Shown one piece after another: positions 9,943-64,000 of a DNA stretch of 64,000 bases (positions are counted from its first letter, which is position 1; each line of letters opens with the position of its first letter). Below the pieces are notes generated by a model that did no database searches, was not told the DNA's origin, and saw only the letters and a program-made list of their open reading frames with translations. A program made the position numbers and the translations under genes. This DNA comes from Takakia lepidozioides (lineage: Eukaryota; Plantae; Bryophyta), in contig CM060731.1 of NCBI GenBank assembly GCA_030704615.1, forward strand, positions 85,684,001-85,748,000, read 5' to 3'.

Positions 9943-9954
9943 GCTCTGATACCA
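9943..9954 (-). promoter_or_regulatory. Primer-binding site (tRNA-iMet) of element B
   Basis: Minus strand TGGTATCAGAGC, 2 nt from the LTR. Confidence 0.92.
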
Positions 9955-9956
9955 AG

Positions 9957-10681: not shown

Positions 10682-10686
10682 CATAG

Positions 10687-15925: not shown

Positions 15926-17577
15926 CAGTTTAGCCATTTCTCTAAGGGGTTTAGCCACGCCAAGCTAGGGTTTGTGTCTCTTGGACTCTAGGCTTATTTG
16001 CACCGAGCTATGGCGGCTGTGAGGAAATCAGCAAGGTATTCTTGCTCTTTATGGCCCCCACACACCACCAATAGTAGCTCTAATTCCAAAGGAAGATGTT
16101 TGCAACCGAAACTAAGTGCACAAGCTTCCTTTTAACTCAACAAACAGCGCCATTGATCCCTATGGCGATTAACCAAACATGGCTGACTTCCAGCCCTTGT
16201 AGGCACTCACTCACGTGCTTTTCTTGACCAAAGCATGCCCTTCGCACCTAATCAGCCCCTGCACCTGCTGCTTCAAGAGTTGTGCTCCCTTCAAGCTTGA
16301 AGTTGAAACCCCAACTCACATATGCCCTACAAAGTGCTTTTATTTCACCCCAAGTGGAAACCAGCCCTAGCCCTTCTGTTCTAGCTCTCTAAAGCTTGAA
16401 AACAAGAGCCTCAATGGGCTGAAGGCATGCTCCACATATGCCCCACTCTCACCATAAGAGAATCAGTTCATTTGCTTCATTTCTTGCACCCACAAACCTG
16501 AAAATACAGGCTTCAGCGGGCTGAAAGCATGCTCCACACATGCCTTACAGGGAAACCAGCCCCTTCCTTCCTTTCTTGCACTCCCAAACCTGAAAGTACA
16601 AGCCTTCAACAGGCTGAAAGCATGCTCCCACATGCATTGCCCTCACATAAGGAAGTCAGCCCTTCCCTCTTCCTTGCTTGCCCTCCAAGCTTGAAGATGG
16701 AAGCTTCAATGAGCTGAATACATGCAACCCCTTCACACAAGAGGTATCAGCCCCCTATCTTGACTCCTTGGCTCCTTGATGCTCTCTAAGATAAGACTAA
16801 GCACTCCACGGCCTTTGCCAAGCTCCTGAACCCTAAGGCTTACATTTCCAGCCATAAGACACTCCTCTTGTGGTCAAGAGTTCTTCTTCCAAGCTCTGAA
16901 ACCCTAGGTGCACATTCCATGGCCTTGTCGCATCTCTTAGCTCCTGTTCCAGCCCTGCTCTTGCCATGACAAGAGCCCTCTCAATGCTGAAGCTCGAGAT
17001 TGAAACCCAATCTCAACATACTCCACAAAGTGCACTGATTTGCCCCAAGCCAAATCAGCCCTTTCGCCTGGTCTTGCAATCCTTCACACAATGAAAGCTC
17101 ACATTCCAAGTCCAGTTCTCAGCTTTGCCACCAAAGCCACTATAACCTGCTCTTGACTAGTCCTCTTCCCAATCGTGCTTGCTCATGCATGTACATCAAT
17201 CTGAAACCATCAAGGTGCTTTGGAATTACCTGCAGCATGGTGCTTTCATCTCTGAAGCTGAAGATCGAATGCCAAGGTCTACGACCTCATAACCCACATC
17301 GCCTCCGCTTCTAACAACCAAGGGCTCCACGGTGCTCCTTGCATAACAACCTGGTTTCTCTCATCCTCAAGCAAAAACCACAAGTGCTACAACTAACTCG
17401 TATCTGGCACTCATAGATACGAGCTCATCTTTCTCGAGTGATAAGGAAGAAGAATACAAGCACAAACTCATGCGAGCTCACAAAGCTGAAGCATAAACTC
17501 ATGCATATATAACCTCATCACTCAATGTGAATGAGAGTTTCTTGGCGGCTTTGGATGGACGGGCAACCAAGTTGACA

Positions 17578-18241
17578 TACATCAAGTCCATGGAGGGTCT
17601 GAAGGGCAGAGTACTAAAGAAGGCGGTTGCCGAAGAGCCTTCCGACACCCCCTGGGTTTCAAAAGATGGTCTTGTCTTTTGAGAAGGTGTGTGCAGGGAA
17701 GGATTGCAGGAGGGGTAGAAAAGTCACCGAGTGGTCTTGCGATATGATCATCTTGGATATTCCGGATGGAGAGCATGTGGAAGGATTGCATGCTTTGCCG
17801 TCTTGGAACAAGTACTCCGAGGACTTTGGAAAAAAAGATTCGGGCTCGCCCGCATGGTGTTGGACGACAGAGGTTGTGTCGTTGTCCTTGCGAGCAGAGG
17901 CAAAAACACGGAGGCAGGAATTGCGAAGTGGGCCCGCAAGAGTGCCATCCCAATTCTGAAGAAGAAGTGGACGTGCATCAACACATTGGGCCTTCGGTCG
18001 GAAGAGAAGATGGTAATTACCACATTGGCAATCGTCCTTGCATTTTCTAAGTTGTTTTGATATGTGGTGCCGCATTCGATTCTAATCGTTCCCCACTATG
18101 TATGCAGACGAAGCAGTTCGATGCATACTGCTTTGTGAAGGAGAACTCGACCTTTGCTTTCCAGAAGGATGGATTGTTGGTTGACCCGAACTGCGACCCC
18201 ATCGATTACGACGTCCCGTTCAACAACGTTCCCACGACTGT
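17578..18241 (+). pseudogene. Fragment of a ParB-MTase gene homologue (MTase N-terminal half)
   Basis: DTPGFQKM...CDMIILDIPDG...GFGLARMVLDDRGC...FDAYCFVK matches 56900-57510, with an intron at the same position (~18013-18107). Confidence 0.85.
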
Positions 18242-20347: not shown

Positions 20348-20386
20348 TTTACCCCTCCCCCTCTCAAAAAGCCGTGTCCTCACGGT

Positions 20387-24834: not shown

Positions 24835-24839
24835 AGTCC

Positions 24840-27136: not shown

Positions 27137-27157
27137 GTCCCATGTCTTTCATTTCTT

Positions 27158-27720: not shown

Positions 27721-27745
27721 CCAGTTCCCCAGTATGGTCGCCAAA

Positions 27746-30243: not shown

Positions 30244-32870
30244 TCAGCTGCGCACAACAATACAGCCGTCGTCGTCCAACATGTTGGCTGCGAACCCGAA
30301 TGTGTGGCTCCAGTATCCTTCGTCGTACTTGTTACACCACGGTAGTGAGCCCAGTCCCAATATCTCGTGCCCATCCGGGATATCCACAAGGATCATGTCG
30401 ATGGAGGCTTTCACCGCCCTGCCCCCGACTGTGCTCTTTTTGCCGTGGCTCATCGCCAGAAAATACCCCATCATCTTTGTGTAGCCAGGAGTGTCCTCGA
30501 TTTCATTGCCAGTGGCCTTCCTCTTCCCCTTCCCCTGGTGGGCCTCCATCACCTTCCTCAATCTCGTTTTCTCCAGCCTTCTGGTCAGAGCACTTAGGAA
30601 ATTTTCATGTTTTGAGGACTTCCCTGCCCGCAATGTGCACCGCACGGTAGGGTCTGCCAGGTGCATCCTTGTATAGTGATCTCTTCGCAGCTGAACCCCC
30701 GGAGCTGGCCCCTGTGAATTTTCGGACGAGGTGTGGCCCCCTCGGTGTTATCCTGCTGGAAATCATCGTCGGAATCCTCGTCATCTAGCTGACTATGTTG
30801 CTGCTTCTTCTTCTTGGGTATGGGGCTCTTCGTCTCTTGCCCCTGTTTACGCGTTCTTTTCTTCCTGTCCTTGGGCTACTCAGCTGCCTGCTTCTCCATC
30901 TGCTCCTTCGCCAACGTTGCCGCCTTGGCCGACTTTCTCAGTGCTTTTTGCTTTGCTGCCTCCTCTGCTTTCAGTTTTGCCGCGTCCTCTGGTTGGGGAT
31001 CTAAATGCGCCTTCATAGCCCGGGCATTTGCTTCCTTCTTCAAGTTAACCTCCGAGAGGTCAACGGTCCCACTTGGGAGATCCACATACCAGGGACAGTC
31101 TACCAAATGCTCGGCATGCCACTCCTTCGCCATGACTTCTGTGTATATCGTACCACGTCCTCCAGGTGCCCTCCATGCCAGGAAGAATGGTGGAACCCTT
31201 TGAATGGCTCCGGATGGAATGAGAGCAAAATTTATGTACCTGCAATCACGAGCCATTTCAACAAAAATCATGTTACTGATGCATCATGCAAGAGGAAGTT
31301 CTGAATGCAGAAGGTACTTCGGCACCGAAATACGCAATGGAGCGTGCCCCAATTACCCAACATTCACATCTTGCAGAGGGATATTTCGGCGCCGCAATAC
31401 CCACCGCTGTTTGGCTAAATTCTCAAAACTGCAAAGAGGGGGATGCATTGGCAGCAGATTACCTGAACAGGACTCGCATTGCCGCTTTGTCGGCACCCTC
31501 CTGCTCTTCGATGTATATGCTGCGTCTTGCCTTTGCAATTTCTCTAAAAAAGAGGTTTGCGAAGCACCCCGCCAGGACTGCACGTAGTTCTCCATTGTCT
31601 CCGGTTTCGTCCAGTCGATCTGCAACTTGAAAGTGGTGGTGTTGCAATCCAATTGCTCCTGGGCGTGGGTCAGTACCTACAGCATTGCAGGTCTCCGAAA
31701 CATTCATGAATTTGAAATTGCGATTGATGTCCAACAACAGAAGAGGAGGACATTATACCTGATGTCACCAAGTCATCACTTTTAGCCAGTTGTTCATTTT
31801 GTCGTCAGCTGACTCAATGGGAAAGTGGTACAGCAGCTTCGTGTTTGTATGGCCGTTCCAGATTCGCAGCCACCTCGTCTGCATGTCCTAACATCGGTCA
31901 GACAAAAGAACCTCATCATGAGAATCGCGAGAAGACACAAAACAAGAACAAACACATGCTAACCTTCTCCGCCGGCTCAACACAGGACACTGCGATATGA
32001 TGAAGTTTCTCCATGGACATTTCCGGTTTCATGGGTTTGGAGTAATGCAGTCATATCTCCGCCAGGAACTTGGCACCAAGACCAGGGTCAGTGATTGCAA
32101 CTTGCTTCACAAGTTTTGACCTGTACTTGGTCCGTGATTGCCTCCATGCCTGCACAATATGACTCTCTATCGATGTGTCCGCCTTGTTGGGGGCATCACT
32201 CTCAAAGAACTGCCTTTTGGCATAGGCCAAGTCATCCCTAATGTTCGTCTGCATTCCCATACCCAGCGGATACAGTCAGGCCAATGAACCTTGCAACAAA
32301 TAGCATTAAATCGCGAAATTTGAAATGAACCTCACCGAATAGAGGATCTCCACCATGGCGTCCAGTGTTGGTCTATACCAGGTGCGATCCGCTTTCGCAA
32401 GGGACTTCCCGTACAGCTCGGGATCGAGGGATTTTTGGAAGTCCGTCAGCGGTGCTGTGCCCACTTCTTGCACTCTGTAGAGCGTATGTGCCAGGTGAGT
32501 TTCCACGAAGGCCCTCTCTGTTACCCTGCCACGGAGAAAAAAAAGAGGAACAACATGAACCTATGATACCAAAATAACCAGATTTTAGCACAACAATCCA
32601 ATTTCCAGTTCATACAGTGGGTGACAGTCAAGAACATTGCCTATTTTGGCGCCGCAATAGGCACTACATAAGGATATAGTAGTGTACTTACATATTTATA
32701 TCCGCCATGGCACCCTTCAGTAGTCCTCTGTCCCTCACGTCCACCTTCACGACAATGCAGTCCACCATGTAATGCCAGTCAATATCTTGCGGATGCATTT
32801 CAGCTATGTACTCTGTCCAGGCAAGCATCCTGTGATCCCTGTCCCAGACGAAGAACATCTTCCCTGCCAT
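30244..32870 (-). pseudogene. Diverged, truncated copy of the ParB-MTase gene
   Basis: GKMFFVWDRDHRMLAW, KADRTWYR, FFREIAKARR, PPFFLAWR..CPWYVDLP, IDMILVDIPDG, collinear with the exons of 53870-57170. Confidence 0.9.
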
Positions 32871-33369
32871 GTGTGCGAATGTGGGATTAGTCTTCAGAGA
32901 GGTTCTCCCTTGCTTCCTCTCATGTGATTCTCCTCAACCCCATAAGCACAATCTACTTTATTTCTGCTCCCTCTTTTCTTCACCAAAGTTGAAATTATAC
33001 AATTGCATAACTAATCTACCATTGACATATGGCAATGTATGGGTCCGACCTTCTGTTATCTTCTCAATGGGGAACGAGCCATATGAACTCAATCAAAAAA
33101 TTTGATATGTATGAAAATTTGAACAGATTGTGTCCACGTTGCCCCAAAATGTTTCGTCCACTACCTAGCGTAAATGGGCCACAATGTTTCATCTCCATGA
33201 GTATTTTGGTTATAAAATAATGTTTCTAAAAAAGTGGTGTTTGCCATAACATGCAAATCGGCACATTTCTAGTCCAAAACTAGGTGAACAATGTTTATAT
33301 CTTCAATTGTCACGTGGATCCTCATTAGTTGGTGCAAGGAACATTCTCTCCGACGATTTGGGTCCAGCA

Positions 33370-44612: not shown

Positions 44613-45379
44613 CAATGACGCAATGGCGTGAGCGCGTGAGCGCGCGAGCGTACACTCAGGAGTGACGTGGCGTGAGCGTCATGTCAGCAGGCTGATGTGG
44701 CGGCAAATGATGACGTGGCACTGCGCCTTCATCTACCAAGTCAGCATTAACATGCGTCGCCTATAACCAATGATGGTCCTATGACCGTGGGATTAATGCA
44801 GGGAATCTTTGGTTGAATACAATCAAGACTATCATCATGAGGCCTACAATTGTAGCATCCAACATTGTGCAATTACAAATGTTTGTTTCACTTTTACAAT
44901 TACGAGGACGAGAAAATATCCTCACAAAGTGTGCGCCATAGAGGCTGCCACGGGAAGACCTTGCTCCCTCCCCAAATAACAATGAGTGTTAGGATCATCT
45001 TCAAAAGATGATTGCAGTGCATAGCGACAGGAAGACATGTAGACTTCGAACGGTGCAATGATGCATGCGCTTTTTAAAATTGCCACTCAGAGCTCACTCA
45101 GTAGTTGGAGGTTTGCTATTTCATGAGCATGAGCGGCATGAGCGGCATGAGCGGCATGAGCAGAGTAGTAACACAATCGGTTTTCATGAGCAGAAGTACA
45201 AATTTCGAAAATTAAAAACAATAAAAAAAAACAATAAAAAACAATAAAAAACAATAATTTAATGCAATGTGTCAGGAAAAACAAATATATTATTCGGCCC
45301 CTTGAAGGGAAAATTGCACTTTTGACAGTTGTGCTCATGAAATTTCGTCTTCCGCTCATGCCAATTCCCAGCGACATGT

Positions 45380-45820: not shown

Positions 45821-45971
45821 GGCCCCAGAACTGCTTCTGTTGGATCTCAGTTTGAATGGAATATTGCCTCATTCCAGGAGTTTTGGGGTGCATTTCATTA
45901 CACTGCAAAAAAAAGTCTGATACAGCAAAATGCATTTGAAAATATCCATATGGAGGATTCCGTTTGCCCCA

Positions 45972-48900
45972 TCAATGATTTCTGGAATCCCTAAGGAGGA
46001 GTTTGTGCAGCTCGTTCACGCTCAACGCCGGTGCATGAATAAAGTCATCAATAGTCACGTTCATCCTCAACCTCTTCAGGTAAATGTAATACAGATGCTT
46101 GCACGGATAATACTTCGAACCCTTCTTTGCTTCCATCAACGAGAAGTCCGTACAGTTGCAAGTCGGCTCCACTCCAATCGTAATTGTGTATACATCGTCG
46201 CGTACAGCCGAGCCGGCCGTTGCCATCCGATACACACGCCCAAGGCCGGGTGGGGGTACGTCCACGGAGCTCTGAATAGTGCAAGCCATCCCAAGAGCAT
46301 TGGCAATCCGAGTCTCATTCAACTTGTTGGGAGGGTGTCGTCTCTTCACTCTTCCGAATCGCATTGTGGGATGTGCAGAATTGTCCAATCCGTCTCTACT
46401 GGACCGAGCAGTATGCAATGGCTGGGTCTGAGGAACCGGAAATGCGTGGGCCGGGATGTCTGTGCGTTGCACCATTCGAAATCCTGCTGCAGATAGAGCA
46501 TCCGCCTCATTCTGAGAGAGGCTGCAACCCGGTGCAACAGGCCAGACGCCCGGAGGCTCCGGCATTCCCTGAATCCCGTACTTGGGCTTGCCAAATACAC
46601 AGGTCATTATGTCGTGCCTACAGAACCAAAATGTCTGCGTTGTGGCGTGAGCAAATGTGGGAGTCAAAAATCTGCCGCTGAAACAAGGTGCAGGTACAGC
46701 ACCGTGTGGGTTCCTCCGAATCATCTCACCACAGCGTGCTCTCGTATCCACCCGGATGGCGCAACACTTCCCTCGAAATGCCGGCAATGTCCTCGCAATT
46801 CTCCACTGTGACTCCGACACTCTTGTCTCCACAATGGGAATGTTGTATTGCTTTACTACAGATGGCTCGTTATGTTGCCGGGGCACGCGCCCTGTGCTCA
46901 AGGAGATGGCGATCTTGAACGTGCAGGACTTCCGGTGCTCGACGAGACCTCCTCGGACAACATCACCGGACCACGAGGGAGCGTGCGAATATTCTTGTCA
47001 GCTCGCCATGAATCCTCTTCTCCGCCAGGTGCCTCGTCAAGTCTTCGTCTCACTGGACGGGTATGAACATCTCCTTCCAAATGTTGGCCTCTTCGCAGCA
47101 ATGGCGTGTCCCGAAGGCCCTCTCGCAAGGCCGCCGCCCACTTCCGAGGATTCTTCGATCTGGAGGCAGTCCGCATCAGCATTTCCTGCCTGTCCGGCCC
47201 CAAGCCCCACTGTTTCCCTTTCAAGAACTCGTTGTACCTGCATTGCTGCATAATTGACCTCACAATGTCCTCCGTTGTGGCAGTGAGGATGTCCACCAGA
47301 TGCGCCGCAGAGGAGGCACGCCAGGAAGAGTGCACTGATTCGGCCATGTTTGTCGTGGGCATGTCGGTGTCGGAGTCGAGACACATTTCCTGCACAAGCA
47401 CATGTTGAGGTTACAAGCAAGTTACAAATATGGCCAAGAATAATATCCAACGGGACGCGAATTCGTGCAACTCACCTCCCGCATATAGTCGCCGAACTGG
47501 AGGAAACGATAATGCCACCATGCTAGCCAACTGACCATTGCTCCTTCGTCTGATTTCCTTACAGCACCTGACGATGTCCACCAAGCCCGTATGCATGCAA
47601 ACTGTGTCTCTGCATCATCCAAGGTGGGAGCGCGCTTCACGCAAGGCACATGGAACGGTGCTCCTCTCTGAAATCTGGCGCCACGAGCCTGGTTGTGTAC
47701 TGCGAAAGGCTCTGCAGAAAGTGGAACCCACAAGATCTCTCCTTGCCTTCCATGGGAACATTGGGGTCTTGCCCGTACACCCTTCGGATGGCAGCCCAAT
47801 TTGCTTGTGCGTTGTCCGCCATGAAACCACGGAAATTGGGAGGGGGCAATCCCGCCTTGGCCATCTGTTCGTTTATTCCCTGCCAAAGAAGCATCTCCGA
47901 TTGTGTGTCCTCTCCTTTCATCTCACAAATAGCAATTGTCATTAGCATCCTGCAGTGGGTGTCGTAGACATGTGCACCCATTGTCACCCACTGGTGATTT
48001 GTAATTCGCTTGATATGGTCGAACATGACCCAACTGTTTGACAAGTTCCCACTCGTCATCCTGTCGACCAGTTCGACGCCACTGCCAGGTCCACACGTGG
48101 ACATTTTGAATACGAAACAACGATCTGCCTCAGTCCCTTGTCCTGGAAACCTACTTCCATGAATGTAGTCATATCCACATCGTCGCTTCACCTCCAGAAT
48201 GGAGTGCATATCCGAGCCACGCCCAATTTTCTGTTTGCATGAGACAATGTGGTTTCGGACATTCGGTGAACATACGTGGGACACCGACTCCAGCAATGCC
48301 TCCATTTCCTTCTCGTCGAGAGGAACTCTATCCGAGCCGTCTTCCGACATAATTCTGGCCAATGCCATCTTATGGGCGGCTTGGAGCTGTATCTGTTTGG
48401 GTTTGGCACCCGGTCTCAACTTAACCTCCTCCTGAACGAGCTGCTCTGCTTCGTGGGCAGCCTCCCGCGAGTTCCCCCTCGCCAATTTGTGACAATGGGA
48501 ACCAACGTGTATGCAAGCTCGGGTGAGGTCAGGGAAACGGTGCAACACATAGAACTGCTTGGCATTACAAACAGACATGCAGTGTGGTGGTTCTTTGCAA
48601 TGCGCACACTTAAATGTGGAGTTCGGAACCTTCTCCTGAGCTCGAAATGGTTGGTGAGCTGTGCCTGTCCAATCGGTCTCGTTCCTGTGACCTCTGGATT
48701 TAAAGTGGAAGCAAGTTGGGGAGAAACACCGCAACGCGCCCGCACAAACAACGTAGCGCACCCGCACACCATCAAGCATCTTCATGCTGGTGGTTTTGGT
48801 AACGCACCAAGGATGACCGTCATGTTTTCTATCCATATCTGTCAACATTCCGGACGCCCTCGAGTAGTCCGCCCGAGGAGGGAACTCAAAGAAGACATTA

Positions 48901-49562
48901 CCGTCGACGTCGGCGGGAAGGCATGTAACCGATTTAATTGCGAACTTGCTGTAGTCCAGCCCGGCCAGCTCCGACCGGTGTCCCTCCAGGTGAAGCCCTC
49001 GCAGAATTTCTAGAATAGATCGAACTGCGGTGCTCGTGCTGGGAATATGACTCCCTCCTCCACTGACGTCCATTGAGGACTTGCCTGATCTCCAGGACGA
49101 CCTCGGAACTTCCATGACCTCGTCTGAGTCGGACAGGTTGTGAACAACCCGGTTCTCGGTCGTCTTCATGGATGGGTTCGGCTCTGGATTTACTTCGTTG
49201 CGGACTTCTCTCTTTGAGGTACCCACTCTCTGATTCGCGGATTGTTTCGTGGAAGGCGCCAGGATAGACGGTGCATTTGGCGGGCAAATGAAGTCCCCAA
49301 CAGCCCTGTATATGACGCTGTCCGATGGTGGAACTCGCCATTCCCTGCCATCGCCGAAATCATCGTGGAGCACAACAATACTCTCGACAACAAGGCCGTT
49401 TGAGTCCTTCCTTTCCTCCTCCAAAAAAACCGACCCCGGTTTCAGGTGGTATCGAACGCACAGATATTTCTCCATCACCCGGCAGGTGTCCCCTCTGCAC
49501 GGAAATGAAGCTCTATGCTCGTGAGGAGGGCAGTACACTGTAGCGCTCGGGTTTTCCGCCAT
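45972..49562 (-). CDS. MULE transposase (WRKY/GCM-like Zn domain, DDE core, C-terminal SWIM); one intron, two -1 frameshifts
   Basis: DGHPW..CAGALRC..CAHC..HVGSHCH; WVMFDH, FMADNAQAN, CGFH, TTNMAESVH; SWIM CNCTDF...CKH. Intron ~47475-47390. Frameshifts near 47638 and 46900. Confidence 0.9.
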
Positions 49563-49859
49563 GGGAGATGTGCACACAAGACTGCCAGGATGGCGTGCGG
49601 GGAAGCTCCCTGGTAGAAGGGGGTGCAGCGATGGGAATGAATGCGATGCCGATTTGTCCGAGCGACGAAGCCTGATCCAAATCCAGGGAGCCAACTATCT
49701 CAAAAATCCACAGTCAGAGTGTTAATGAACCTTGTCTCCGGAATGCGGCCCCTCGTCTTTGCGCAATAACTGCCAACGGTATGCAGTCAGAAAGTGGGGG
49801 GCCGTCCGGATGATGACGGCTGAAGGGGATAAGCCGGCACCGTGCCGTCACATTACTAC

Positions 49860-51880
49860 CCCCGAATGGAAATTCGGCACCCAACATCCAACAGAGGAAG
49901 CCCGGATGAAGTCGCCTCGGGCGCAGAGGCCGGAGTGTGTGCGACAGAGAACATCCCCTGGATGGAGATTCGGCGCCGAATTTCCATCCGGTCCCCCCAA
50001 AGGGAGTCGTGTCGGGGGGTCAGGCCGAAAACTGGACGGCATAAAAACATCCCCAGATGGAAAAACGGCGCCGAATTTCCATCCGGGGCGATTCGGATGC
50101 AGTCGGGGAGGGGGGAGTGGCCTGCAGTTGGCTGTCACATTTCAACCCCCGGACGGAAATTCGGCAACGAATATCGAACAGGGGACGCCCGGATGAAGTC
50201 GCCTGGGGCACAGAGGCCGGCCAGTGTGCGACAGAGAACATCCCCTGGACGGCCATTCGGCGCCGAATTTCCATCCGGGCCCCCCAAAGGAAGTGTTGTC
50301 GGGGGGTCAGAGCGAAAACTGGCCGACATAAAAACCTCCACAGATGGGAAAACGGCGCCGAATTTCAATTCGGGCCGTTCCAATGCAGTCGGGGAGGGGG
50401 AGAGGTCGGAACCTGGCAGTCATATTTCAACCCCCGGGACGGAAATTCGGCACCGAATATCCAACAGAGCGGCGGAGAGGCGGCACCTCTCCGACAGAGA
50501 CCATCCCCCGGATGGAGATTCGGCGCCGAATTTCCATCCAGCAGGTAAGTGGAATCTCGGATGGATGAGATTCGACGCCGAATTTCCATCCTGCAGGTAA
50601 TTCGAATCCCGGACGAATGGAAATTCGGCGCCGAATTTCCATCCAGCAGGTAAGTGGAATCTCGGATGGATGGAGATTCGGCGCCGAATTTCCATCCTGC
50701 AGGTAATTCGAATCCCGGACGAATGGAAATTCGGCGCCGAATTTCCATCCAGCAGGTAAGTGGAATCTCGGATGGATGGAGATTCGGCGCCGAATTTCCA
50801 TCCTGCAGGTAATTCGAATCCCGGACGAATGGAAATTCGGCGCCGAATTTCCATCCAGCAGGTAAGTGGAATCTCGGATGGATGGAGATTCGGCGCCGAA
50901 TTTCCATCCTGCAGGTAATTCGAATCCCGGACGAATGGAAATTCGGCGCCGAATTTCCATCCAGCAGGTAAGTGGAACCTCGGATGGATGGAGATTCGGC
51001 GCCGGATTTCCATCATGCAGGTAATTCGAATCACGGATGAATGGAAATTCGGCGCCGAATTTCCATCCAGCAGGTAAGTCGAATCCCGAATAAATGGAAA
51101 TCCGGCGCCGAATTTCCATCCAGCAGGTAAGTCGGATCAGTGCCGTATGGATATTCGGCGCCGGATTTCCACTCGCCATTTATTTCTGAGCGAGGAATTA
51201 CCTTCGTGCAGGTAATTCCCATATAAGAATTACCTTCGTGCAGGTAATTCGCATACAAGAATTACTTCGTGCAGGTAATTTCCAGATGACAATTACCTTC
51301 CTGCAGGTAATTCCAATCGATGTTTATTCCTCGTCCAGAATTACCTGCACAAAGGTAATTTTCATCTGGAAATTACCTGCACGAAGGTAATTCTTGTATG
51401 CGAATTACCTGCACGAAGTAATTCTTATATGGGAATTACCTGCACGAAGGTAATTCCTCGCTCAGAAATAAATGGCGAATGGAAATTCGGCGCCGAATAT
51501 CCATATGGCACCGATCCGACTTACCTGCTGGATGGAAATTCGGCGCCGAATTTCCATTCATCCACGATTCGAATTACCTGCAGGATGGAAATTCGGTGCC
51601 GAATTACCTGCTTCAGGGAAATTTGGCGCACCGCCCTACCTGCGCGGATGGAAATTCGGCGCCGGATTTCCATCCGCGCGCTTTCGAATTACCTGCTCGA
51701 AGGAAATTTGGCGCACCGCCCTCCTGCGCGGATGGAAATTCGGCGCCGGATTTCCATCCGCGCGCATCCGAATTACCTGCTTGAAGGAAATTTGGCGCAC
51801 CGCCCTACCTGCGCGGATGGAAATTCGGCGCCGGATTTCCATCCGCGCGCTTCCGAATTACCTGCGTGAGGGAAATTCCG
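49860..51880. repeat. Intergenic palindrome arrays (ATGGAAATTCGGCGCCGAATTTCCAT), including a 53/106-bp array and a large inverted repeat
   Basis: 53-bp monomers alternating as 106-bp dimers at 50510-51170, inverted arms centred near 51325, and 84-85-bp units at 51641, 51725 and 51810. Confidence 0.95.
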
Positions 51881-52613
51881 GGACTGTTTTCGTCGATTTT
51901 CTTCCGACATGGAGGGCTTCATCCGACATTTAATTGCGCAGTTGGGCAATAAATGTCGACGGCCGTCGGTTATTATTCGGGCTGGCGACGCATGGCTTCC
52001 TGGACACGTACCCTAAATCTCATGCTAACTTGGCTTAACATGGTATTCCAGGCATGTACCCAAAAAAGGAGATCTTTTTGGCTGGGACTTATGCCGCCTG
52101 AAGGGCGTGGCTCTCCTGAGAGAGACCTCAGATCCAGACCGCGGCGGAAGTTGAAAGCTCTGTACTACGGACGACGGCCAATCTCTCGCATGGCCAAACT
52201 GAAGCTCCAGCAGGAGATTCCAGTGTCTTGCTCACAACCTGCGCCAACTGAAGCCGAGTACTCTCAGGCAAGCCACTTCTGCTTTCGGTTTGTTCGATTT
52301 CTTTTTTGCTTTCGCTTCGTTACCTCGCTTTGTTTCTGCATCTTCATCCTGGCTTTGCTTTATGAGTGAACTTTAGATAGTTGACTGAACCTTAGATTGT
52401 TTGCAATGCGTGTGCAAATCCGGCAGCTCTGGAGAAGGCTGCTTGTGCATGTCATTCTTAGGCAATGGTTGCATTTGTTTTCATTGTTGTTGCATGGCTC
52501 TCCATACTTCCTAAACTTGTTATGTTTTCATTTTTGCTACATGATTGCTGCTATGGTGGTTGCGCTGCTGTTTTTGCACCACTGTTGGTGTTCACGATTT
52601 TTGTCAATCACAG

Positions 52614-55600
52614 AGTGACGACGAGCCCGGCACGCTGGTGGTATCATCGACAGCTCCAACTCATCGCATGTTTGAATCGCCCAACTTGGGGCGAGAGGGC
52701 AAACTTAAATCTTTTGTTGGTGGACGGGAGGACTTGCAACGAGATTACGATAGAGTAGGCATTGGGGAGGTTGGTGCAGGCGGCATGGCAGGTGAAGGGC
52801 GTGAGGACATGAGGACAGCAGATCCGGCAATGGAGGTTGTTCATGCACATGCAGTAGGGCCCGCCCACGCAAAGAAAAAGAAGAAAGCTAAGCACATGCA
52901 ATCCCCGGCGAGAGAGCAGTCACGGGCTGCGGAGGGGGGAGTGAGCAGTGCGCGCGAGGGTGTCAGTTCGCCTCAATCAAAGGTGGTCGTCCTGGAGGGC
53001 TCCCCTGTTGCTAGCCCTAGTAAGAAACAGAAAGCCCGTGAGAGGGCAAAAGAGAGGGCAAAAGAACAGACGAGACAGAATGCTAGCAAGGAGGAAAGAC
53101 AAAAGGCAGCTGAAGAGGCCAGGGGTGCCCAAATGACAGATGTCAATGTAAGCGAGGGACACACAGAGACGGTGGATCCCTACAAGACACCACAGAGAGG
53201 CAGTAGCACACCGGTTAGACCATCGCGGGCAAGTGCAGCCCCCGCAATTACCCATACGGTGGAGAGTGGAGGAGAGGAAAGAACACCTGAAAGAGCACCG
53301 ATTGTGCAAGTTCGAGGTGAAGCCAGGGAGAGGGCAGTAGAGACGACGAGAGTGCTGGAGGTGGTTTCGCAGGTGGCTGACCCTGTTGAGGAGGACGACA
53401 TGGATGTTTCTGACCAGGATGACATTCTCCCGGACATCCCCAGGCCCCAAACCCGGAGCATACAGGCTGGATTTGGCGGTCTTGGTGGGCTGCCGGAAAA
53501 CCCCTCTGCAGCAGACGTCATGTCTGAGGCGGATATGAAGTTGGCCGCTGCCAAGATGTTGGAGGCAACCCACAGCAACATTGGCAGGGTGCTGGGGGGC
53601 ATGGTGTACCCGGCCAAGCTTCGAATTCCCCTTTGCCGCTTGGTGTCATTGCAGGTGGTGAGACCTGCCCTCCCAGGCGATATCGACAAGCTGAAATTCT
53701 CTTTCCGGGATGGATATCGAATGGGGTCTGCCGCCTTTTACGTTTCCATTGAGAACGACCACGGAGCTTCCCGTGCCCACACTTCCGATGAGGTGGACAA
53801 ATGGGGTCCCCATTGGCAAACGCGAAATGAGGAGTTCGAGAGATCGATTGCTAGTGATCCTCTTTTCCAGCACATGTCCGGTAAGATGTTCTACGTGTGG
53901 GACGGCAATCATCGCCTCCTGGCATGGATGGAGCACATTGCCCAAGCCCACCCCAACGATCTCGATTGGCATTTCGCCGTCGATTGTGTTGTGCTGAAGG
54001 TTGCGGGGCCCAAAGATCGCAGTCTTCTCAAAGCTGCAATGGCCGACATCAACTCGTAGGCTACAACCCCTCTCGCTTTTGGACTTTGAATTTGGAAGTC
54101 ATTTCATTGCGAATCCTCATATATGATGAAAATTCCCATTTCAGTATTGTTTGATGGAAATGTGGCACTGCAGGGTGACTGAGAATGCCTTCATTGCCAC
54201 CAACTTGTCCCATATGCTCTTCCGAGTGAAGGATGTCGGGAAGCAGGGGGTGCAAGAGTTTGCCAATTCCCTCAGTGCCGACCTCCTGCGCAAGTCGGAG
54301 GCAAAGGCAGACAGAACCTGGTATAGGCTGAGCGTCGACGCCATGGTGGACTACATATTTCGGGTAAAGCTCCTGCAGTTTTGTTGAGCTAATTTGTCTC
54401 TCCTCCCCCAATAGAAGAAATTGTGTTGAGCAGGATCTCTAATCTTATGTGCTGCTTTTCGACAGACGAAAATACAGCAGGATTTGGCACATGCGCGGAG
54501 GTTCTACATGGAGTCAGAGGAGAAGAATCCAACCCTCCCGGAACTCGAATCGTATGTCAAAGCTGCGGAGGTGAGGGCCCGCATAAAGTACAAGTCGCGG
54601 ATGGTAAAGTACGTGGCCATAGCTGATCCCGCCCTTGGTGCCGACTTTCTGGTGGAGGTGGGAAAGCACTACTCTCGCGCTCTGAAGCCCACGATGACAT
54701 TGGAGAAGCTCCATCGTCTAGCCACATCCTGTGTGGATGCAACAGAAAAGGTGATACATTCTTAACCAAATTGTGGTGGCAACAACTCCTTTTTGTGGTG
54801 TTTGGCGCTTACGAATATGCTGGGTGGTTGGACAGACCCGGTGGCTCCAAATCTGGAATGGTTCCCAAAGTACCAGGGACATGTGGAGCTTCCCCAAACC
54901 GGACAAACTCTCTGACCCCACATTCGACATGTGGATGAACCGCATGACATGGTGGTTTCAGGTACTTCCCCACGCTTCGTTTGGGGCTTGTACTCTAGTA
55001 GGGGGTGGATTCAATGTATTTTTTGAGGAAAGCGATCTGATGGACAATCTCCACAGGTGACGACGAATGCGCAAGAGCAGCTGGACACACAAGCACATCA
55101 GTTCAAGATGGAGATATCTCCTGCAGCAGAGAGCCTACGTGACTATGTGACGAGGTACTTTCTGCTCTACAAAACCAACCTATTCTTTCGGGAGATAGCA
55201 GATGCTCGCCGGAGCCACGAGTTCACCGACCAGCCGAACGCGGACAAAGCAGCAATGCGCCTTCTGTACAGGTACATACGCGCTGCCTTTCTTTCAAGTC
55301 CTGGCATTTCAGGATGTTAGAGGCCTAAGTGGTGTTAGGGAAAATGGCGCCGAATTTCCAGTCAGGGCTCCGAAAATGGCAAAGTCCCTAGACTGGCTGG
55401 CCCGGAACTGGAAATTCGGCGCCATTTTCCAGTTCCAGGCCCTATTGCCGTTCAGGGACTTAGCCATTTTCGGGCTAAGTCCCTAGTGTGGCTGGCCCGG
55501 AACTGGAAATTCGGCGCCGTTTTCCAGTTCTAGGCCCTATTGCCGTCCAGGGACTTAGCCATTTTCGGGCTAAGTCCCTAGACTGGCTGGCCCTGAAGTG

Positions 55601-58438
55601 GAAATTCGGTGCCATATTCCAGTTCCAGGCCCTATTGCCGTCCAGGGACTTAGCCATTTTCGGTCTAAGTCCCTAGGGTGGCTGGCCCGGAACTGGAAAT
55701 TCGGCGCCGTTTTCCAGTTCTAGGCCCTATTGCCGTCCAGGGACTTAGCCATTTTCGGGCTAAGTCCCTAGACTGGCTGGCCCTGAAGTGGAAATTCGGC
55801 GCCATATTCCAGTTCCAGGCCCTATTGCCGTCCAGGGACTTAGCCATTTTCGGTCTAAGTCCCTAGGGTGGCTGGCCCGGAACTGGAAATTCGGCGCCGT
55901 TTTCCAGTTCTAGGCCCTATTGCCGTCCAGGGACTTAGCCATTTTTGGTCTAAGTCCCTAGGGTGGCTGGCCCGGAAGTGGAAATTCGGCGCCGTTTTCC
56001 AGTTCCAGGCCCTATTGCCGTCCAGGGACTTAGCCATTTTCGGGCTAAGTCCCTAGACTGGGTGGCCCTGAAGTGGAAATTCGGCGCCATATTCCAGTTG
56101 TAGGCCCTATTGCCGTTCAGGGACTTAGCCATTTTCGGACCTCATTGGGTTTTTCATGAATGCAGGTACTGTAAGTTCTCGCTTTTGGAGAAAGGTCATC
56201 TGTCTTTCGAGCCACCATTCTTCCTGGCATGGAGGAACCCTGGGGCTGACTCCATGTACACTGACGATATTGTGAAGGAGTGGCATCTGGAACATTTGCG
56301 TGATTGCCCTTGGTATGTGGACCTTCCGCCCGGCTCGCTCGACCCATCCGAGTTTCAATTGAAGCTGGATGCTGAATTCCGACGAAACCGGGCTCCGCTG
56401 CCTCCGTTGGGTGCAAAAGAGGCAAAAGCGCTTGCGAACTCCAGGAAAGCGGCAGAGCTTGCTCAGGCAGGAATTCAGGAGAAATTGCATGAGAAGAGTA
56501 AAGGTCAAAGGAAAAGGACAAGGAAACAGGTGACTGCAGTAACACCCAAAAGAAGAAAACCATCGGGGCATCGGAGGAGGCGCAGGAGGGGACCCAAGAG
56601 AGTGACTCCGACGCCGATTTTGTTCAAGGTCCTGCGACTGCTGTTGCTCCTACCCAGTCACCGGTCGTCCGGGTTCCCAAGTCAGTTCGGAGTGGGACTG
56701 GCTCTGCCAAGAAGTTGGCATTTGAGGGCGAGCCTACACGGCGGTATTCGGCGGTGACGTTTACGCACAGGCCAAAGCTAGAACCTCCAACCATCATCCA
56801 ATGCGTCAATGAGAGCTTCCTTGACGCTCTCGCTGCCAGGGCGAAGAAGGTGGCACACAACAAGTCTCTGGCGGAGCAGAAGGGGAAAGCCAAGAAGAGG
56901 GCTGCCGGTACAGAGCCTAAAGACACCCCTGGTTTTGAAGCCATGATGGAATTCTTCACGGCTGTGAGCACGAATTGCAAGAGCACTCGGGGGGGGTTGA
57001 GGTGGAGAGAGCTTGCGACATGATTCTCCTCGACATTCCAGATGGGGAGCTGCTGGAGGGCCTGGATGGTGTGCCCACCTGGAACAGGTTTACTGAGGAC
57101 TACTGGAAAGCCGGGTTTGGGCTGGCGGGGATGCTTCTGGATGACGGTGGATGTGTGGTTGTCCTTGCCACGAGAGGGAAGACCACAGAGAATGCGGTGG
57201 CAAGGTGGACACCGAAAAGTGTCACCCCGGTCCTCCTCAGAAAATGGTTCTGCATCAGTACGCAGGGGTTGCGAACAGAGGGCCAAAGTGTAAGTTATCA
57301 ATCTATTGCATTCACTTCATATTGTGGTGTATGTTAAGTAGACCCTGGAATTGATCCCTTCTTTGTTGGATGTGCAGACATTGGTGTTTGAGGCATATTG
57401 CTTTGTGAAGAGAGGGTCTACGTTCAAATTCCGCAACGACGGTCGTCTTGTTGATGCCGCTGTGGACCATGTAACCTACGATGTCCTCTACAACTATGTG
57501 CCCCACTCTAGTATGCCGAAGGACACAAAGACAGGCAAACCGTGGCGGTACAGCCGGACCCGAAGCCCTGCTTTCATCCAAACCCTCATGGAGACGTGCT
57601 CGGATGTCCAAGGGCGGATTCTGGACCTCACATGCGGCACGGGTAAGCCTTCACGTGCTCAGTTTGTCCCCTGGCCCCATTGCAATTGCATGCCGCAAGC
57701 TATTAACCGCCCGCTTTGTTCCTCAGGTGCTTCAATGTGGGCAGGGACGTTGTCCGACAGGCATGTGTTCGCCTTCGAGCCAGATACTGCCCTCCACAAC
57801 TCGGAACTTGCAGCGGCTGAACGTCTGCCGAAAGAGGAAGAGGCATCCTCGGAGGATGAGGAAAAATCCGAGAAGGAGCAGGGGGAGGAAGTTGGGATCG
57901 AGGCCGAGGAGCCCCCGGTTTACGAGTGAGTGGTGGCATTGTAAGTTGCCTCCAGATTTTGTGAGGCACCTCCCTCCGCTCTCTTATTTCATTGAAAACC
58001 CTTTCTGGTTGTGCTGGTATTGACATTCTTCAAGTGCCTTTTTTTGCCAGGGGAGATTTCATGCCTAGTCCAGAAAGGGAGTACATCCTGCCTACTTATG
58101 CTGCCCGGCTTGCTTCGGTGTCCATTAGGAGGTGTTCCGAACGTAGTCGTGTACAGCAGATTTTAGACGAGGCAAGCCTCAAGAAAATGAAGATGAGGGA
58201 GGAGGCAGCAGCTATTAGAGCCCGTCGGGCTCGTAGATTTGTGTTGGATTCTGCTGAGGAAAGTGGGGGAGAAGACGCAGAAGATTCCCAGGAGGTGAGG
58301 TGGACAGTCCCCCAAGGAGAGGACGGGATTTTTGAGAGGCATAGTGGAACTGATGCATCACAGAGCTCGGAGGATGAGGGGGATGAGGGGGATGAGGAAG
58401 AAGGTGGGGCAAGTTCCTCGGAGGGTGTAGGAGAGTAG
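52614..58438 (+). CDS. Spliced ParB/Srx-like + beta-class N4/N6 DNA methyltransferase-like protein (~1,400 aa; start probably further upstream, near 51953)
   Basis: In-phase GT-AG exons 52614-54055, 54174-54363, 54466-54750, 54836-54961, 55057-55271, 56166-57289, 57378-57642, 57727-57925 and 58051-58438. FYVWDGNHRLLAW (DGNHR 53901-53915), DMILLDIPDG (DIPDG 57032-57046), RSPAFIQTLMETCSDVQGRILDLTCGTG/ASMWAGTLSDRHVFAFEPD. Two -1 frameshifts in the 56166-57289 exon. Confidence 0.85.
55335..56140. repeat. Intronic 95-bp tandem array (190-bp dimers) with two palindromes per unit
   Basis: Each unit has CTGGAAATTCGGCGCCGTTTTCCAG and GGGACTTAGCC-ATTTTC-GG(G)CTAAGTCCC. Confidence 0.95.
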
Positions 58439-58780
58439 TGCCCATTCCGGCTATGACAGTTAGAACACACTTGTATAGACGTGGCTTGCCACAAAATTTG
58501 CAATAAAATGTTGCATTTTAAGTCCACTGGTGCCACATTCCAACTTCACATGACCCTATTTCCGTGCCTCCTAACCCTATTTCCGTGGACTCACAATGGT
58601 CTGCTCATGCTTTTTTTTTTTCCGCTCATGCTCATGCCGCTCATGAAATAGCAGCCCCCAGTAGTTGGAAGCATAATGGAGGGATAAGGGACGCCATATC
58701 ATTGCACCGCAGATGATGTTGCACATTTGAATTTCACATTTCATAGCATGGTCGTCCACATACCACATGCATAGTTGATG

Positions 58781-61550
58781 CTACCCATGTGTTGTATCCC
58801 GCTGCAATAGAGTATCGACCTCGCTGAGACTCAGAGTGGCCTGGTGAACGAAGTTGTCACGTTTGGGATCGCAAACCATCCTCTTCAAAAATATGAAATA
58901 CAAATGTTTGCAGGGTATGAATTTACCTCTCTTGCCCAAACTGGTTGAGAGCATATTCACAAAATCAGGACATGTGCAATTGGGGAAATTGGAAACCGTG
59001 ATGTCGTAGGCCCTGTCATGAACAACAGATGTCGAAATGATCATTGTGTACACCCGACCATATCCTGGATCGGGCACTTCCGTGGTGCTTGCAACACGAG
59101 CTTGGAGCATTCTTGCAAACTCCACTTTGCCAAAGTGTTCAGCGGTTGGAAGGAAACGCCGAACGAGCTTTCCATCTCGTTTGGTTGGCCACAAGTGAGG
59201 ATTTGCTGGAGGGACCCGAGAGGACGCAGAGGTAGTAGCACATGCATGCAGTTGGGGTTGTCTTGCAAGGGAAAAGCCTGCCTCCTCCAGCATTGCAATC
59301 TCCTGACTTGTGAGATGTGTTCCCACCTTGACGGGCCAAACGGTTGGAGGAGCTGGCTTCATCACCACGGAAGGACGCACAGTTCCATGCATACATCTGC
59401 CACAATCATCTGCGCAGAACCAAAACTTGTGGTTCTTGGCTTCTGGTTGACCGTATGGACGCATCAAACCCGTGAAAGTCGGAGCAGGAGTCCGGGCACC
59501 ACCTCTGGATATAGATGAAGTGCACTTCTCGAAATTAGTTGCCCTGATCGCTGTACATTTCACACGAGACCCTGCACTTGTGCGTTCTATGTGCCAAACG
59601 TGGTCGGGGCATGCGGACTCAAGCACATCAAGGGGGTTGTTTCTCTCCTGCACCATTTCAGTGGCACTATTTGATGCTAGAGCCTGCCGTCGTGTTGGAG
59701 GTTCCTCCAGAATGGAGGTTCCAGAAATGGATTTGTCATGCAGGGGAACACGAGGCTTCGAGAAGTTATCACGGTCTGCCCTGTGCGAATCGGAATCCGA
59801 ACCAGGTGGAGTGTTCAATTTCCGCTTACACGAGCCGAATCTCTCCTCCCCTTCAAGATGTGGAACTCTAGAAACAAGTGGCGTTCCCTGGGCAAACATG
59901 CTCACCGCCCGTGCTATCTTGCTTGGATCCCCAGATCTGTTTGCAGCACGCAACATCAACTCCAATTTGTCCAGACCCTTGCCACCAACCCCACCTCGCA
60001 AGAAATCACGGTATCGGGTTTGTTGTTGCAAGGCACGTATCAAATCATCTATTGTTGCCACATACAAATCCCAACCTCGTTTCCCAAACTGTTGCAACCA
60101 TGCGTTGTACACAGTCTCTACCAAATTGCAAGATGGCATGTCCGCCATTTCCTCAATGGACATGTTCTGCAAAGTGGAGAACCGCACTTCAGAAAAGTGC
60201 ACAGAGAACAACATAAAGAAAGGAATGAGAGCAAAATTTGGAAAGTAAATGCATGAATAAAGCAAGCAATAGAAGCCTCGCACCATTGTCATGGCTGCTC
60301 CCCACTGTTTGTACCGGAAGTGCCAAAACGCCAGCCAATCTTCCAATGCTCTCATACTCTCAAGCGATGCAGCTCCAGAAGAGAACCACCACGCACGAAT
60401 TGTCTGGAACAAAGTGTCTGCCTCTTTCATTGTTCTAGCATCTTTGTACTCTTTGCACAATTTGCGGTGTTGTATCTGCATCTCTGGTTTGATGTCCGAC
60501 TTTGTATGTTTCTCCAGAGATTGTGTCCAATGGAATAGACATGTACGCTCTCTTCCCGACATTGGCACTTTTGGGTCACCTGATCCGAAGACACTTCGAA
60601 TTGCATTGAAATTCGCCTGAGCACTATCTGCCATGAAATCAGCGAAATTTAGAGATGACACCCCATGGCTGCCCATAACACGTATCAGGGAATTCCACAT
60701 GAGCTTCTGGGATTCTGTATCCTCGGATTGCATGACACACACTGCAATTGTCATAACTCATTGGTACACAGGATCGTAGACATGACAAGCCATTGTCGTC
60801 CAATCTTTCACTCGTTTCACATGATCAAACATAAGAAAACAATTCTGTAGGTCCCCACTCTTCTGCATCTGCTTCACGAGGCTAACCCCACTGCCCTCCC
60901 CAGCAGTCGACATTTTGAAAAGAAATACTTTGATGGCACCTTAACCTGGGAAAACATTGTCCTGGATAAAGTCGTACTTGCTCAGACGTTTCAATTCCAA
61001 AATGTTGTCTATGTAGCCTCTGATCCCAGAGCCCATTCTCAATGCATTGATCTGATGCCGAATGTTAGGTGAACTCAAAGTGGAGAAATAATCCATGACA
61101 ACGTCCAATGCTGAACCATCAAGTTTAGTCCCCACAGAATCCCCTTCACTCAAAATATGGCTTTCCAAGAAAAACTTGCTTGCGCCAAGAGCAATTGCAG
61201 ATGTTGTTGCGGATGGGTTTCTCTCGTACTCCTGTTTAATCAACCTCGACATTGTCTCAACACTCTCCCTGTAATCCCCCTTCGAGACAGGATGGTTATG
61301 GAAACCAAAATGCACACAAGCTCTTGTCATTGTTTTCAAACGGTGGACAACATAGTACATTCTTGCTCCGCACAGCGCCAGGCAAGATGGTACAAGTTTG
61401 CAGAATTTACAAACGAAAGTGTTTGCCGGTGGAGGAGCAGTCCCAGGCTTAAATGGATTTTCCGCGAGACCCTCCCACTCGCTTTGATTATGAACCCCAG
61501 ACTGAAGAAAGTGTCTGCAATTCAAATTATCACACCTAAGGTGTCCAAGC
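58781..61550 (-). pseudogene. Second, diverged MULE-SWIM transposase of the same clade; 5'-truncated, frameshifted near 60940
   Basis: CKFC..HFGFHNH, MFDHVKR, FMADSAQAN, CLFHW, SCNLVETV, SWIM CTCPDF..CKH. In-frame intron at the same site as copy 1 (~60280-60170). Confidence 0.9.
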
Positions 61551-62190
61551 ACTACAACAACAAGCAAGAGGAAACTAAGCAAATGAGCTAGATGAAGAGC
61601 AAGAAGGGCCTTGCTCTTCATTTATACTGTTTTTGTGTCCAACATTGTATCCTTGGAGGAACTATAGTTTAATATTCAACATGGATGAAAAGTCTTAGAA
61701 GCCAATGAAAGCTAGCTTTTCATCCATCCTGATGGATGACCAGTTGGTGCGAGTTGTCATTTCATCCGTCCAGCTCCTCAAGGCGAATTTAGGATTTTCC
61801 ATCCATCCATGAAGTAAAAATTCAAATAATCGGCTCCCGTGAGTGTCGTTGACTCAATAATTTGGTGCCATTGCTAATCTACTCCTTAAATCACCAAACT
61901 TGGTGACAAACTACAATTATATACCCCATATGAGCTTGTAAATTCTCAGGTCCATCAATGGTAAGAAGTCACTCCTTTCGCCCTTTGTCGTAGTTTCGCT
62001 ACATAAAGATTTTGTTTGTTTCTTGGAAATCAAATCCCTGGGGGTGGCTCTGGGGTCTTTGACCCTGCCACTGAGTCATAGGTTGTCCGGAGTCCCCTCC
62101 AATTGTCCCGCACCACTAACAAGCCCACGCTTTGTCGTTTGAAGTCGTCCTGACCACCCCGTTGCTACCCATGCAAGATCTTCTTTGGGA

Positions 62191-63597
62191 TCAAAAAACA
62201 TGCCAACGACGCGGAGAGTGTCCGCATGTGGAAAGACCAGAACCCAAAATCGGTCTTCTTCTGTCAAGAGGAGAAATTGGCGCCAACATTCAAGCACTAC
62301 GATGGCGACTTAACATTCACAATCGGCATACAAACTGAGTGGCAGAAGGAGCGAATGCTTCAATTAGGCCATGCCCGTATCGTTGCATGCAATGCAACCT
62401 TCGGGACAAATCACCACAAGGTACTCTTCATCCCTTTTACAATTTATCTGCTTGCACAACTAGTGGATATGCGCACACTGGCAGCATCTGACATTCTGCA
62501 TCTTAACAGTTCCCATTGTACACGTTGATGGTCTTCGACGAGTGGCTTAACGGTATACCAGTTGCGTACATCATATGCGCGCATGAGCAGACAACAGACC
62601 TGGTGCCGTGGATGGCAGCCTTGCGGGACTCACTCCTCGCAGAAATGCCGGACTGGCAACCCAATGTCTTCATTGTGGATGATGTCGGCGCCAAAATAAA
62701 CGCCATTACGTAAGTTTCACATACCCTCATGTACACTCGTGTGCAAGTCTGCTGCGTGCGTCCATTATCAGTCTCTTTGGCAAGTCCCTTGTCATACAAC
62801 GCAGTCCTTTGTGCAAGTCCGGCCCACTCCTTTCTGCAAGTCTGCTTGCGCAAGTCTACTGCAAGGTCAGTCTGGTCGGGTCTGCTGCCAGCAAAGTCTG
62901 GGCAAGTCTGCTGTCGGCCTCCTAAGGGCAAGTCCGTTGGAAGACTCACTTATGCAAGTTTGGTGCGAGGTCAGTCTGGTCGGATCTACTGCCACTGAAG
63001 TCTGGGTAAGTCTGCTGCCGGCCTCCTAAGGGCAAGTCCGCTGGCAGGCTAGTCCACCGGAGCGGATTGTTCGCAAGCAGTCCGCTGCAAGACTCACTTG
63101 CGCCAGTCTGCTCCGACATCAGTCTGGTCCAGCAAGTCCGCCGGAGGGGACTGTTCGGAAGTCTGCTGGCAACCCAATCCGCTCGGAATGCCCTCTAGCC
63201 AAGTCCGTTGCAAGACTCACTTACGCAGGTCCGTTGCGAGGTCAGCGTGGTCAGGTCTACTGGCGGTCTCGTGAGGGCAAGACTCATGGCAGGTCAGAGA
63301 GGGCGAGTCTGCTGGCTGAATCCATTGGGCAAGTCCACTGTAGCAGACGGGCAGACCAGTCCACCAGAGAGTCTACTGGGTTAGTGCCCAAGTTCACCGG
63401 CGAAGTCATCTTTGAAGTCTCTCATGTGGGCATGTGTACTTTGCAGGGCTGTTTTTCGAGGAGTGTTCATTTTCCTGTGTCTTTGGCATGGCCGGCGGGC
63501 TTGGATGAAGCAATCATGCGCGAAAACCAAAGATCCTATCACTGCCGCAAACTTGTTGAAGGATATGGGAGACCTCATGTACTGTAGAGGTGGACCA
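62191..63597 (+). pseudogene. MULE transposase fragment (second clade, DDE core) with a repeat-rich intron
   Basis: KHANDAESVRMW, NATFGTN, YTLMVFDEWLNGIPVAYII, FIVDD, LCLWHGRRAW. Confidence 0.82.
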
Positions 63598-64000
63598 AAT
63601 GTTTGCCATGCCCGTTTCTCGGCCAGGTTGCGCACATCCTGCTCCAACATAAAATCGTTCTGTGTCCATGCATCCCCCAACCCGGTGTTGTTCATGACGT
63701 GCTCTTTATGTTCCATCATGATTTGGGCGACTAACAGGCCTCGGCACAGACACTCCATGACCCATGCTTTTAATTCCTCGCTAATGTGTGGTGCATAGGC
63801 GTGGCGAGTGTTCCTGAACTCAGTGGACTTCCCATGACAGGCGTTCCCTTTTGCGTCTATATGCTCCATGTTGTTGTAGTACGTGAGGACACAAATGTCG
63901 GGGGCGAGATAACATTGCTGGACCTTGAAACAGCATTGGCAACCACGGTTGTAAGACTCTCCATATTCCGACTTCTTTCTCCTTGGGCCTTTATGAGGGT
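63598..64000 (-). pseudogene. N-terminal part of the same second-clade MULE transposase, opposite strand
   Basis: RGCQCCF...HIDAKGNACHG...APHISEELKAWV...DVRNL. Confidence 0.7.

Follow-up and report, generated by a model that had tools for sequence, protein, structure and literature searches.

A 64,000-nucleotide stretch of Takakia lepidozioides DNA, analyzed at its full length and called the window here, encodes a domain that resembles DNA amino-methyltransferases and reads DIPDG where their catalytic motif is expected, and it raises the question of what such a domain does. Methylases of the beta class are dimers, and in the bdelloid enzyme N4CMT the serine of motif IV and a proline carbonyl hold the target amine, with a tyrosine that stacks the base in a model (PMC10406627, accessible sections). 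The Type III methylase HP0593 is inactive as the variant Y107G, and M.TaqI is less active as Y108A/G (PMC3036652, accessible sections). The motif and profile comparisons given below suggest, with modest confidence, that the domain is a beta-class fold that is catalytically dead or crippled and serves as a module of an accessory protein predicted to bind the palindromes of its own transposable element.

In a six-frame scan of the 64-kb window DIPDG appears exactly three times, each time after D-M-I-x-x (Table 1), against a chance expectation of 0.019, which agrees with the three diverged copies of the sequence-only reading. The motif codons differ synonymously between the three copies while the residues are unchanged. 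The SAM-binding-like LDLTCGTG and FAFE noted earlier in copy 3 were likewise found (LDLTCGTG at 57621-57642 plus 57727-57728, FAFE at 57768-57779), but the description of this copy as full was not upheld: it carries one-base frameshifts at 56547 and 56988, and as it stands its first stop, at codon 932, precedes the methylase domain. Stops or frameshifts also interrupt copies 1 and 2, which are fragments, so that all three window copies are broken. For the frameshifts in homopolymer runs at 56547, 56988 and 17815-17826, slippage or assembly error is possible.

Table 1. Features of the window, ordered by position (left to right on the forward strand).
Feature	Position	Strand	Basis or remark
Copy 1, frameshifted piece of the methylase-like domain, stopping short of motif I	17513..18233	+	
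Copy 1 motif, CDMIILDIPDG	17756-17770	+	six-frame scan
Copy 2, decayed accessory gene, covering the ParB-like part through the first half of the methylase-like domain	30247..32942	-	
Copy 2 motif, IDMILVDIPDG	30384-30370	-	six-frame scan
Target-site duplication AGTAGTTG, left	45100..45107	+	8 bp, possibly 9 bp
Left end, a terminal inverted repeat, short and imperfect, that contains CATGAGCGG units	45108..45165	+	
Mutator-like transposase gene, frameshifted here, divergent from the accessory gene	45972..49694	-	D-D-E pattern, CxFH, SWIM finger
Tandem arrays of the 22-bp palindrome GGAAATTCGGCGCCGAATTTCC between the divergent genes; candidate binding sites	49825..51877		
Accessory gene of copy 3, 8 exons, 1265 codons (start codon assumed)	52668..57929	+	
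Predicted ParB/Srx-like domain (VWDGNHR), weak assignment	53640..54055	+	Atlas 0.93-0.95; ParB_N on 11% of one cluster
Array of 8 units of 95 bp in intron 5, palindrome core in each unit	55378..56138		
Beta-class amino-methyltransferase-like domain, 3 exons	56996..57830	+	motif I LDLTCGTG, motif II FAFE
Copy 3 motif, CDMILLDIPDG, at the motif IV position	57032-57046	+	six-frame scan and profile alignment
Right end, terminal inverted repeat	58620..58659	-	
Target-site duplication AGTAGTTG, right	58660..58667	+	

The accessory protein of copy 3 consists, in order, of a low-complexity N-terminus, a predicted ParB-like domain, a helical middle, the methylase-like domain and an acidic tail. A placeholder base at each of 56547 and 56988, both in homopolymer runs, gives a single open frame of 1265 codons. 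Sibling copies have an extra A at 56547 in 4/4 sequencing runs and, at 56988, one extra G in 3/4 and two extra G in 2/4. Two introns of the methylase domain (57290-57377 and 57643-57726, both GT-AG) connect DIPDG to LDLTCGTG and FAFE, and the second of them interrupts LDLTCGTG. Runs X8 and X11 were classed as RNA by guess, no run with matches being recorded as such. One 770-base contig of X8, with 13 other letters, covers 56991-57932 with both methylase introns absent, and joints for two further introns appear in contigs of X8 and X11; the gene model thus has 4/7 introns backed by joints in RNA-like contigs and 3/7 by homology to copy 2 and GT-AG ends only. A spliced transcript of a sibling copy spans the methylase domain, the RNA nature of X8 being guessed. 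Between the accessory gene and the right end of the element lies an acidic frame of 157 codons (57965-58438, + strand), which sibling RNA-like contigs cover and which has no Pfam match.

Between copies, the methylase domain has a pN of 0.245-0.341 and a pS of 0.52-0.79. The bootstrap intervals of pN/pS (uncorrected ratios, synonymous sites saturated in two pairs) are 0.29-0.66, 0.23-0.41 and 0.34-0.97, all three below 1, and the domain is under purifying selection. These figures bear on the reading that this is a captured gene in decay, in which the shared DIPDG reflects only the common descent of dead copies. The broken state of all three window copies and of most metagenome copies speaks for decay, but the residues were kept while synonymous sites approached saturation, two single-base placeholders restore the 1265-codon frame with bases that sibling copies carry, the spliced sibling transcript (RNA by guess) spans the domain, and the motif pattern holds in a fern and a liverwort. 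Decay is thereby largely refuted already and we regard it as very improbable; the earlier argument that conservation speaks against it stands on the pN/pS intervals and the sibling transcript.

The position of the motif within the fold was examined with two sets of phage beta-class methylases collected by DNA pattern, set A of 35 with DL[IV]xTDPPY and set B of 45 with DMILxD[LIM]PYG, of which about 1800 such stretches are estimated in the collection. A member of set B, L210, matches PF01555 at E 1e-28, and its DLPY aligns on the DPPY of CcrM. In hhalign the family profile (25 rows) aligned collinearly with the 45 DLPYG-type methylases at 97.6% (E 3.4e-12, 201 columns) and with the 35 DPPY-type at 94.9%, with the DIPDG column on both DPPY and DLPYG; selection of the phage sets by their motif IV pattern favors a match there, a bias that does not extend to the matches at motifs X, I and II. 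None of ten reversed or shuffled controls exceeded 0.7%, and exon 1 alone gave 95.3%. The better of the two canonical profiles tried was the DLPYG-type (score 84 vs 55 for the DPPY-type). The beta-class order of motifs, IV ... X-I-II, is collinear over the domain, and its C-terminal half was independently called N6_N4_Mtase by Atlas (0.92). The PF01555 gathering score was not reached, as the window pieces and the fern proteins gave no match and P0021 scored 13.7 bits vs 26.7. An AlphaFold model of the fern domain is of low confidence (pLDDT 49.7) and returned no Foldseek match with E < 0.001; with this model, VIA had the best Z (5.2), and M.MboIIA aligned over 109 residues at Z 3.8 and rmsd 7.8. 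By profile alignment, then, DIPDG sits on motif IV of a beta-class amino-methyltransferase fold, the catalytic position to which the sequence-only reading had assigned it.

A profile of the three window copies found 20 proteins at E <= 0.001, from which the long repetitive P0004 and P0015 were dropped. The named family members are from the fern Adiantum nelumboides and the liverwort Riccia sorocarpa, and the fern protein P0031 contains a ParB-like stretch and the methylase domain together. A search with the N-terminal domain gave 114 matches in metagenomes, from which 80 loci were retained, and part of the methylase domain lies downstream on the same strand in 25/80, a fraction that includes many short, redundant or decayed loci. 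Word-seeded protein searches with single exons found no relatives, exon 1 found none in metagenomes, and PDB sequence searches gave no meaningful match. Relatives were absent from viral contigs, and in annotated phages none scored below E 6. One viral contig, L328, reads DMIVHDIPDG near the end of a frame without a motif I after it, probably by chance.

Across the family the motif was tallied in 26 aligned sequences, of which 25 cover it and some are decayed or closely related. Position 1 is D in 23/25 and N in 1/25, both within the D/N/S set of amino-methylases, and the remaining one is a poorly aligned fragment. Position 2 is I in 10, V in 4, L, M and C in 3 each, and Y and G in 1 each; position 3 is P in 20/25; and position 5 is G in 22/25. 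Position 4 is D in 8, T in 6, N in 4, E in 3, and S and G in 2 each, with no aromatic residue (Y/F/W) in any of the 25, fern and liverwort included. By its motif the domain would therefore not be counted among the active amino-methylases. The family rule reads, in this alignment, as D-hydrophobic-P-[D/T/N/E/S/G]-G with the aromatic lost, and the proposal that DIPD is a conserved catalytic signature fails on the 17 sequences without D at position 4. Nor is the change from Pro to Ile at position 2 non-canonical, as had been supposed, for DMILxD[LIM]PYG is common in phage methylase genes and Ile or Leu there was presumably inherited from the ancestor.

Other landmarks are partly retained. The downstream W-N is nearly invariant in the family, motifs I and II retain their acidic residues, the His of HPTqKP is missing, and the loop before the Trp is longer by 6-10 residues. 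Motifs I and II read DLTCGTG...FAFE in copy 3 and ELGAGTG...VIDND in the fern, and motif I reads DLTCNTG, DWNASTG and DF[A/I]TST (the last from decayed copies) in three other lineages, with the first Gly replaced by N or S or lost. With no aromatic residue, a fourth position that varies freely and a glycine loop that drifts, the domain is likely dead or weak. Against a pseudo-enzyme stand residues that an enzyme would need as well, namely the conserved Asp, Pro and Gly of the motif, the W-N after it and the acidic positions in motifs I and II.

The same residues, kept from the host of the window to fern and liverwort, favor an active methylase with a rebuilt site, in which the conserved Trp 13-18 residues downstream, on the lengthened loop, would replace the Tyr and the protein would mark its own element with 4mC or 6mA and so block or bypass host 5mC silencing. 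I or L at position 2 is tolerated in phage genes with complete motifs, and self-modification has been proposed for the algal relatives (PMC12477816, accessible sections). We nevertheless consider this reading unlikely. Position 4 takes any of six small or polar residues, which does not resemble a new catalytic site. The Trp is an inherited feature, since 44/45 phage DLPYG methylases carry W[D/N] at 7-8 residues past the motif without having lost the Tyr. Motif I differs from lineage to lineage, and when viral contigs were searched for the non-aromatic motif, none of the 6 matches was a methylase with motif I downstream. A repurposed domain, one of the options of the sequence-only reading, is the likeliest account, and the altered chemistry that it offered as another is a less probable one.

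The label of the N-terminal domain is weak. Its VW[DE]GNHR is conserved and aligns on the GHHR of phage ParB, but hhalign gave only 0.35% against 9 phage ParB domains, with one shuffled control higher at 7.8%. Pfam and PDB searches with this domain were blank, and its AlphaFold model (pLDDT 48.5, low confidence) had no fold match. Among 241 phage methylase loci, a ParB-like N-terminal domain is fused to a beta-class methylase in 9 (L085, L094, L109, L120, L128, L142, L143, L144 and L146). Such phage fusions are a possible source architecture of the plant protein.

The accessory gene lies inside an element of 13.55 kb (45108-58659) whose inverted ends are short and imperfect and which is flanked by an 8-bp target duplication; beyond 58659 the X8 and X11 contigs diverge from the window sequence. 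Mutator/MULE elements have terminal inverted repeats and target-site duplications of 8-10 bp, and the ends of this element are of that kind. It is called Mutator-like because its transposase shows a D-D-E pattern, CxFH and a SWIM finger, motifs recognised by eye; the SWIM match (E 0.005) is below Pfam cut-off strength, and Pfam MULE gave no match for this gene and E 0.074 for the homolog at 58781-61400. That downstream homolog was ruled out as the partner of the accessory gene, being outside the inverted repeats and the target duplication. In run X1, 12,056 of 23,174 contigs aligned on 2.5 kb are at least 99% alike, which points to a large young family, the contig share being no copy number.

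A second Mutator-like transposase with SWIM (58781-61444, - strand) lies directly to the right of the element, fragments resembling further Mutator-type transposase pieces were seen by eye at 62150-64000, and an array of a related palindrome, GGAAATGCGGCACCGCATTTCC, lies to the left of the element at 43942-44608. The element seems to have inserted into a relative having its own palindrome variant. Ty3/gypsy remains occupy 5449-10683 and 18817-29493, and repeats of about 730, 500 and 1040 bases are common to several places.

Matches to the palindrome half-site number 57 in the element vs 2 in the remaining 50 kb. The cores lie mostly between the two promoters and in an intron, and also near the left end (45000-45999), and none was found near the right end. 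The left-end cores are what one would expect of a transposition helper with no role in anti-silencing, in which the dead methylase fold would be only a dimer scaffold bridging palindromes near both ends and in the middle. The link to transposition is further favored by metagenome loci, 6/80 (about 4 distinct elements) of which share the divergent layout of the window element, with an opposite-strand transposase upstream. The lack of a right-end core, and the placement of most cores between two promoters and in an intron, like VANC sites, tell against it, and we think this account improbable.

The preferred reading, a weak or dead methylase fold within a self-binding protein, would unfold as follows. 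The domain would descend from a phage-type DMILxDLPYG methylase, the Tyr would have been lost early in the land-plant lineage, and the fold may have been retained for DNA contact and dimer formation, perhaps with cofactor binding. The accessory protein would load on the palindrome arrays of its own Mutator-like element and, in a VANC-like anti-silencing role, protect the element from host silencing or aid transposition. Self-binding is called into question by the weak ParB label and by the lack of comparable palindrome arrays in the 14 long metagenome loci examined, many of them decayed. A bolder proposal, to which we assign little likelihood, is that seed-free land plants have a Mutator lineage whose accessory protein joins a bacterial-type ParB clamp to an amino-methylase active in the absence of the stacking aromatic; loaded on the CG-rich palindromes of its element, the protein would write or read an amino-methyl mark (4mC, 4,5-dimethyl-C or 6mA) that shields the element from silencing. 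If true, such activity would amount to a novel solution of the active site and, in plants, to a non-5mC mark written by a transposon.

The locus offers a testable package in the form of a protein, a 22-bp candidate site and an activity test that turns on one residue. A dead domain would call for a motif-by-motif check of the algal 'self-modifying' proposal, and an active one would mean new chemistry. For transposon accessory proteins, binding and modification of their own DNA has been shown for VANC alone, and for algal ParB-methylase genes it is a proposal. The element would extend the algal accessory type to land plants (the host of the window, a fern and a liverwort), with a methylase there that is without the catalytic aromatic yet under selection. 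No paper on a land-plant form of the ParB-methylase accessory gene or on its motif was found in a search that had most subscription papers outside its reach.

By analogy, the gene may work like an algal ParB-methylase or VANC-type accessory gene. The accessible sections of the Ectocarpus report (PMC12477816) describe in the element Sola1-1_Ec32 a gene for a 1104-aa protein with a ParB-like and an N4/N6-methylase domain opposite the transposase, with similar proteins in green and red algae, and propose that it binds and modifies its own element, the domain being treated as a predicted enzyme. The Takakia gene is alike in coding for one protein (1265 aa) with a ParB-like (weak label here) and a 4mC/6mA-methylase domain, on the strand opposite the transposase of a large DNA transposon. 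It differs in lying in a Mutator-like element of a land plant rather than the Sola-1 superfamily of a brown alga, and the two are likened by layout, not by sequence homology. Red algal Plavaka elements carry the accessory genes PAG2 (PF01555 and SET) and PAG3 (ParB-like and 2OG oxygenase). They share with the Takakia element the placement of methylase and ParB-like domains on a DNA transposon, seen on Chondrus Mutator elements too, and tandem arrays of inverted repeats next to the ParB-like gene (bioRxiv 10.1101/2025.02.11.637652, accessible sections). There the domains are in separate genes with other partners, whereas here they are fused, and no SET or 2OG domain was detected in the window accessory protein (Pfam blank).

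The phage methylases with DMILCDLPYG...LDNCMGSG (PF01555; e.g. L210) share with the plant domain D-M-I-L-x-D-[LI]-P-x-G, a downstream W, 'dnG.iv.f', K-P, LD.(C).G.G and an acidic motif II; unlike them, the plant domain has lost the Tyr and has a longer loop before the Trp, no HPT His, introns gained and a fusion to a transposon protein. Eukaryotic beta-class motif order is also found in bdelloid N4CMT and Marchantia DN4MT1a/b, but these are host genes with an intact SPPY and shown activity (PMC10406627; bioRxiv 10.1101/2021.02.12.428880; accessible sections of both), the Marchantia DN4MT1 motif being TSPPY (bioRxiv 10.1101/2021.02.12.428880). The plant transposon family lacks SPPY, and the kinship to these enzymes suggested earlier finds no backing in the motif. 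The retrotransposon DIRS1 also carries an amino-methylase domain, predicted inactive in all copies, but of a PCIF1-derived group-2 fold in a retroelement polyprotein, not of the beta class (PMC4738411, accessible sections). With VANDAL/VANC of Arabidopsis the Takakia element shares the Mutator type, the possession of an accessory gene, and tandem motif arrays that lie densely both upstream of the transposase and within introns (PMC5735166, accessible sections). VANC binds same-orientation 9-bp motifs and its anti-silencing is shown, whereas here the motifs are 22-bp palindromes and anti-silencing is only inferred, the two being likened by layout (PMC5735166).
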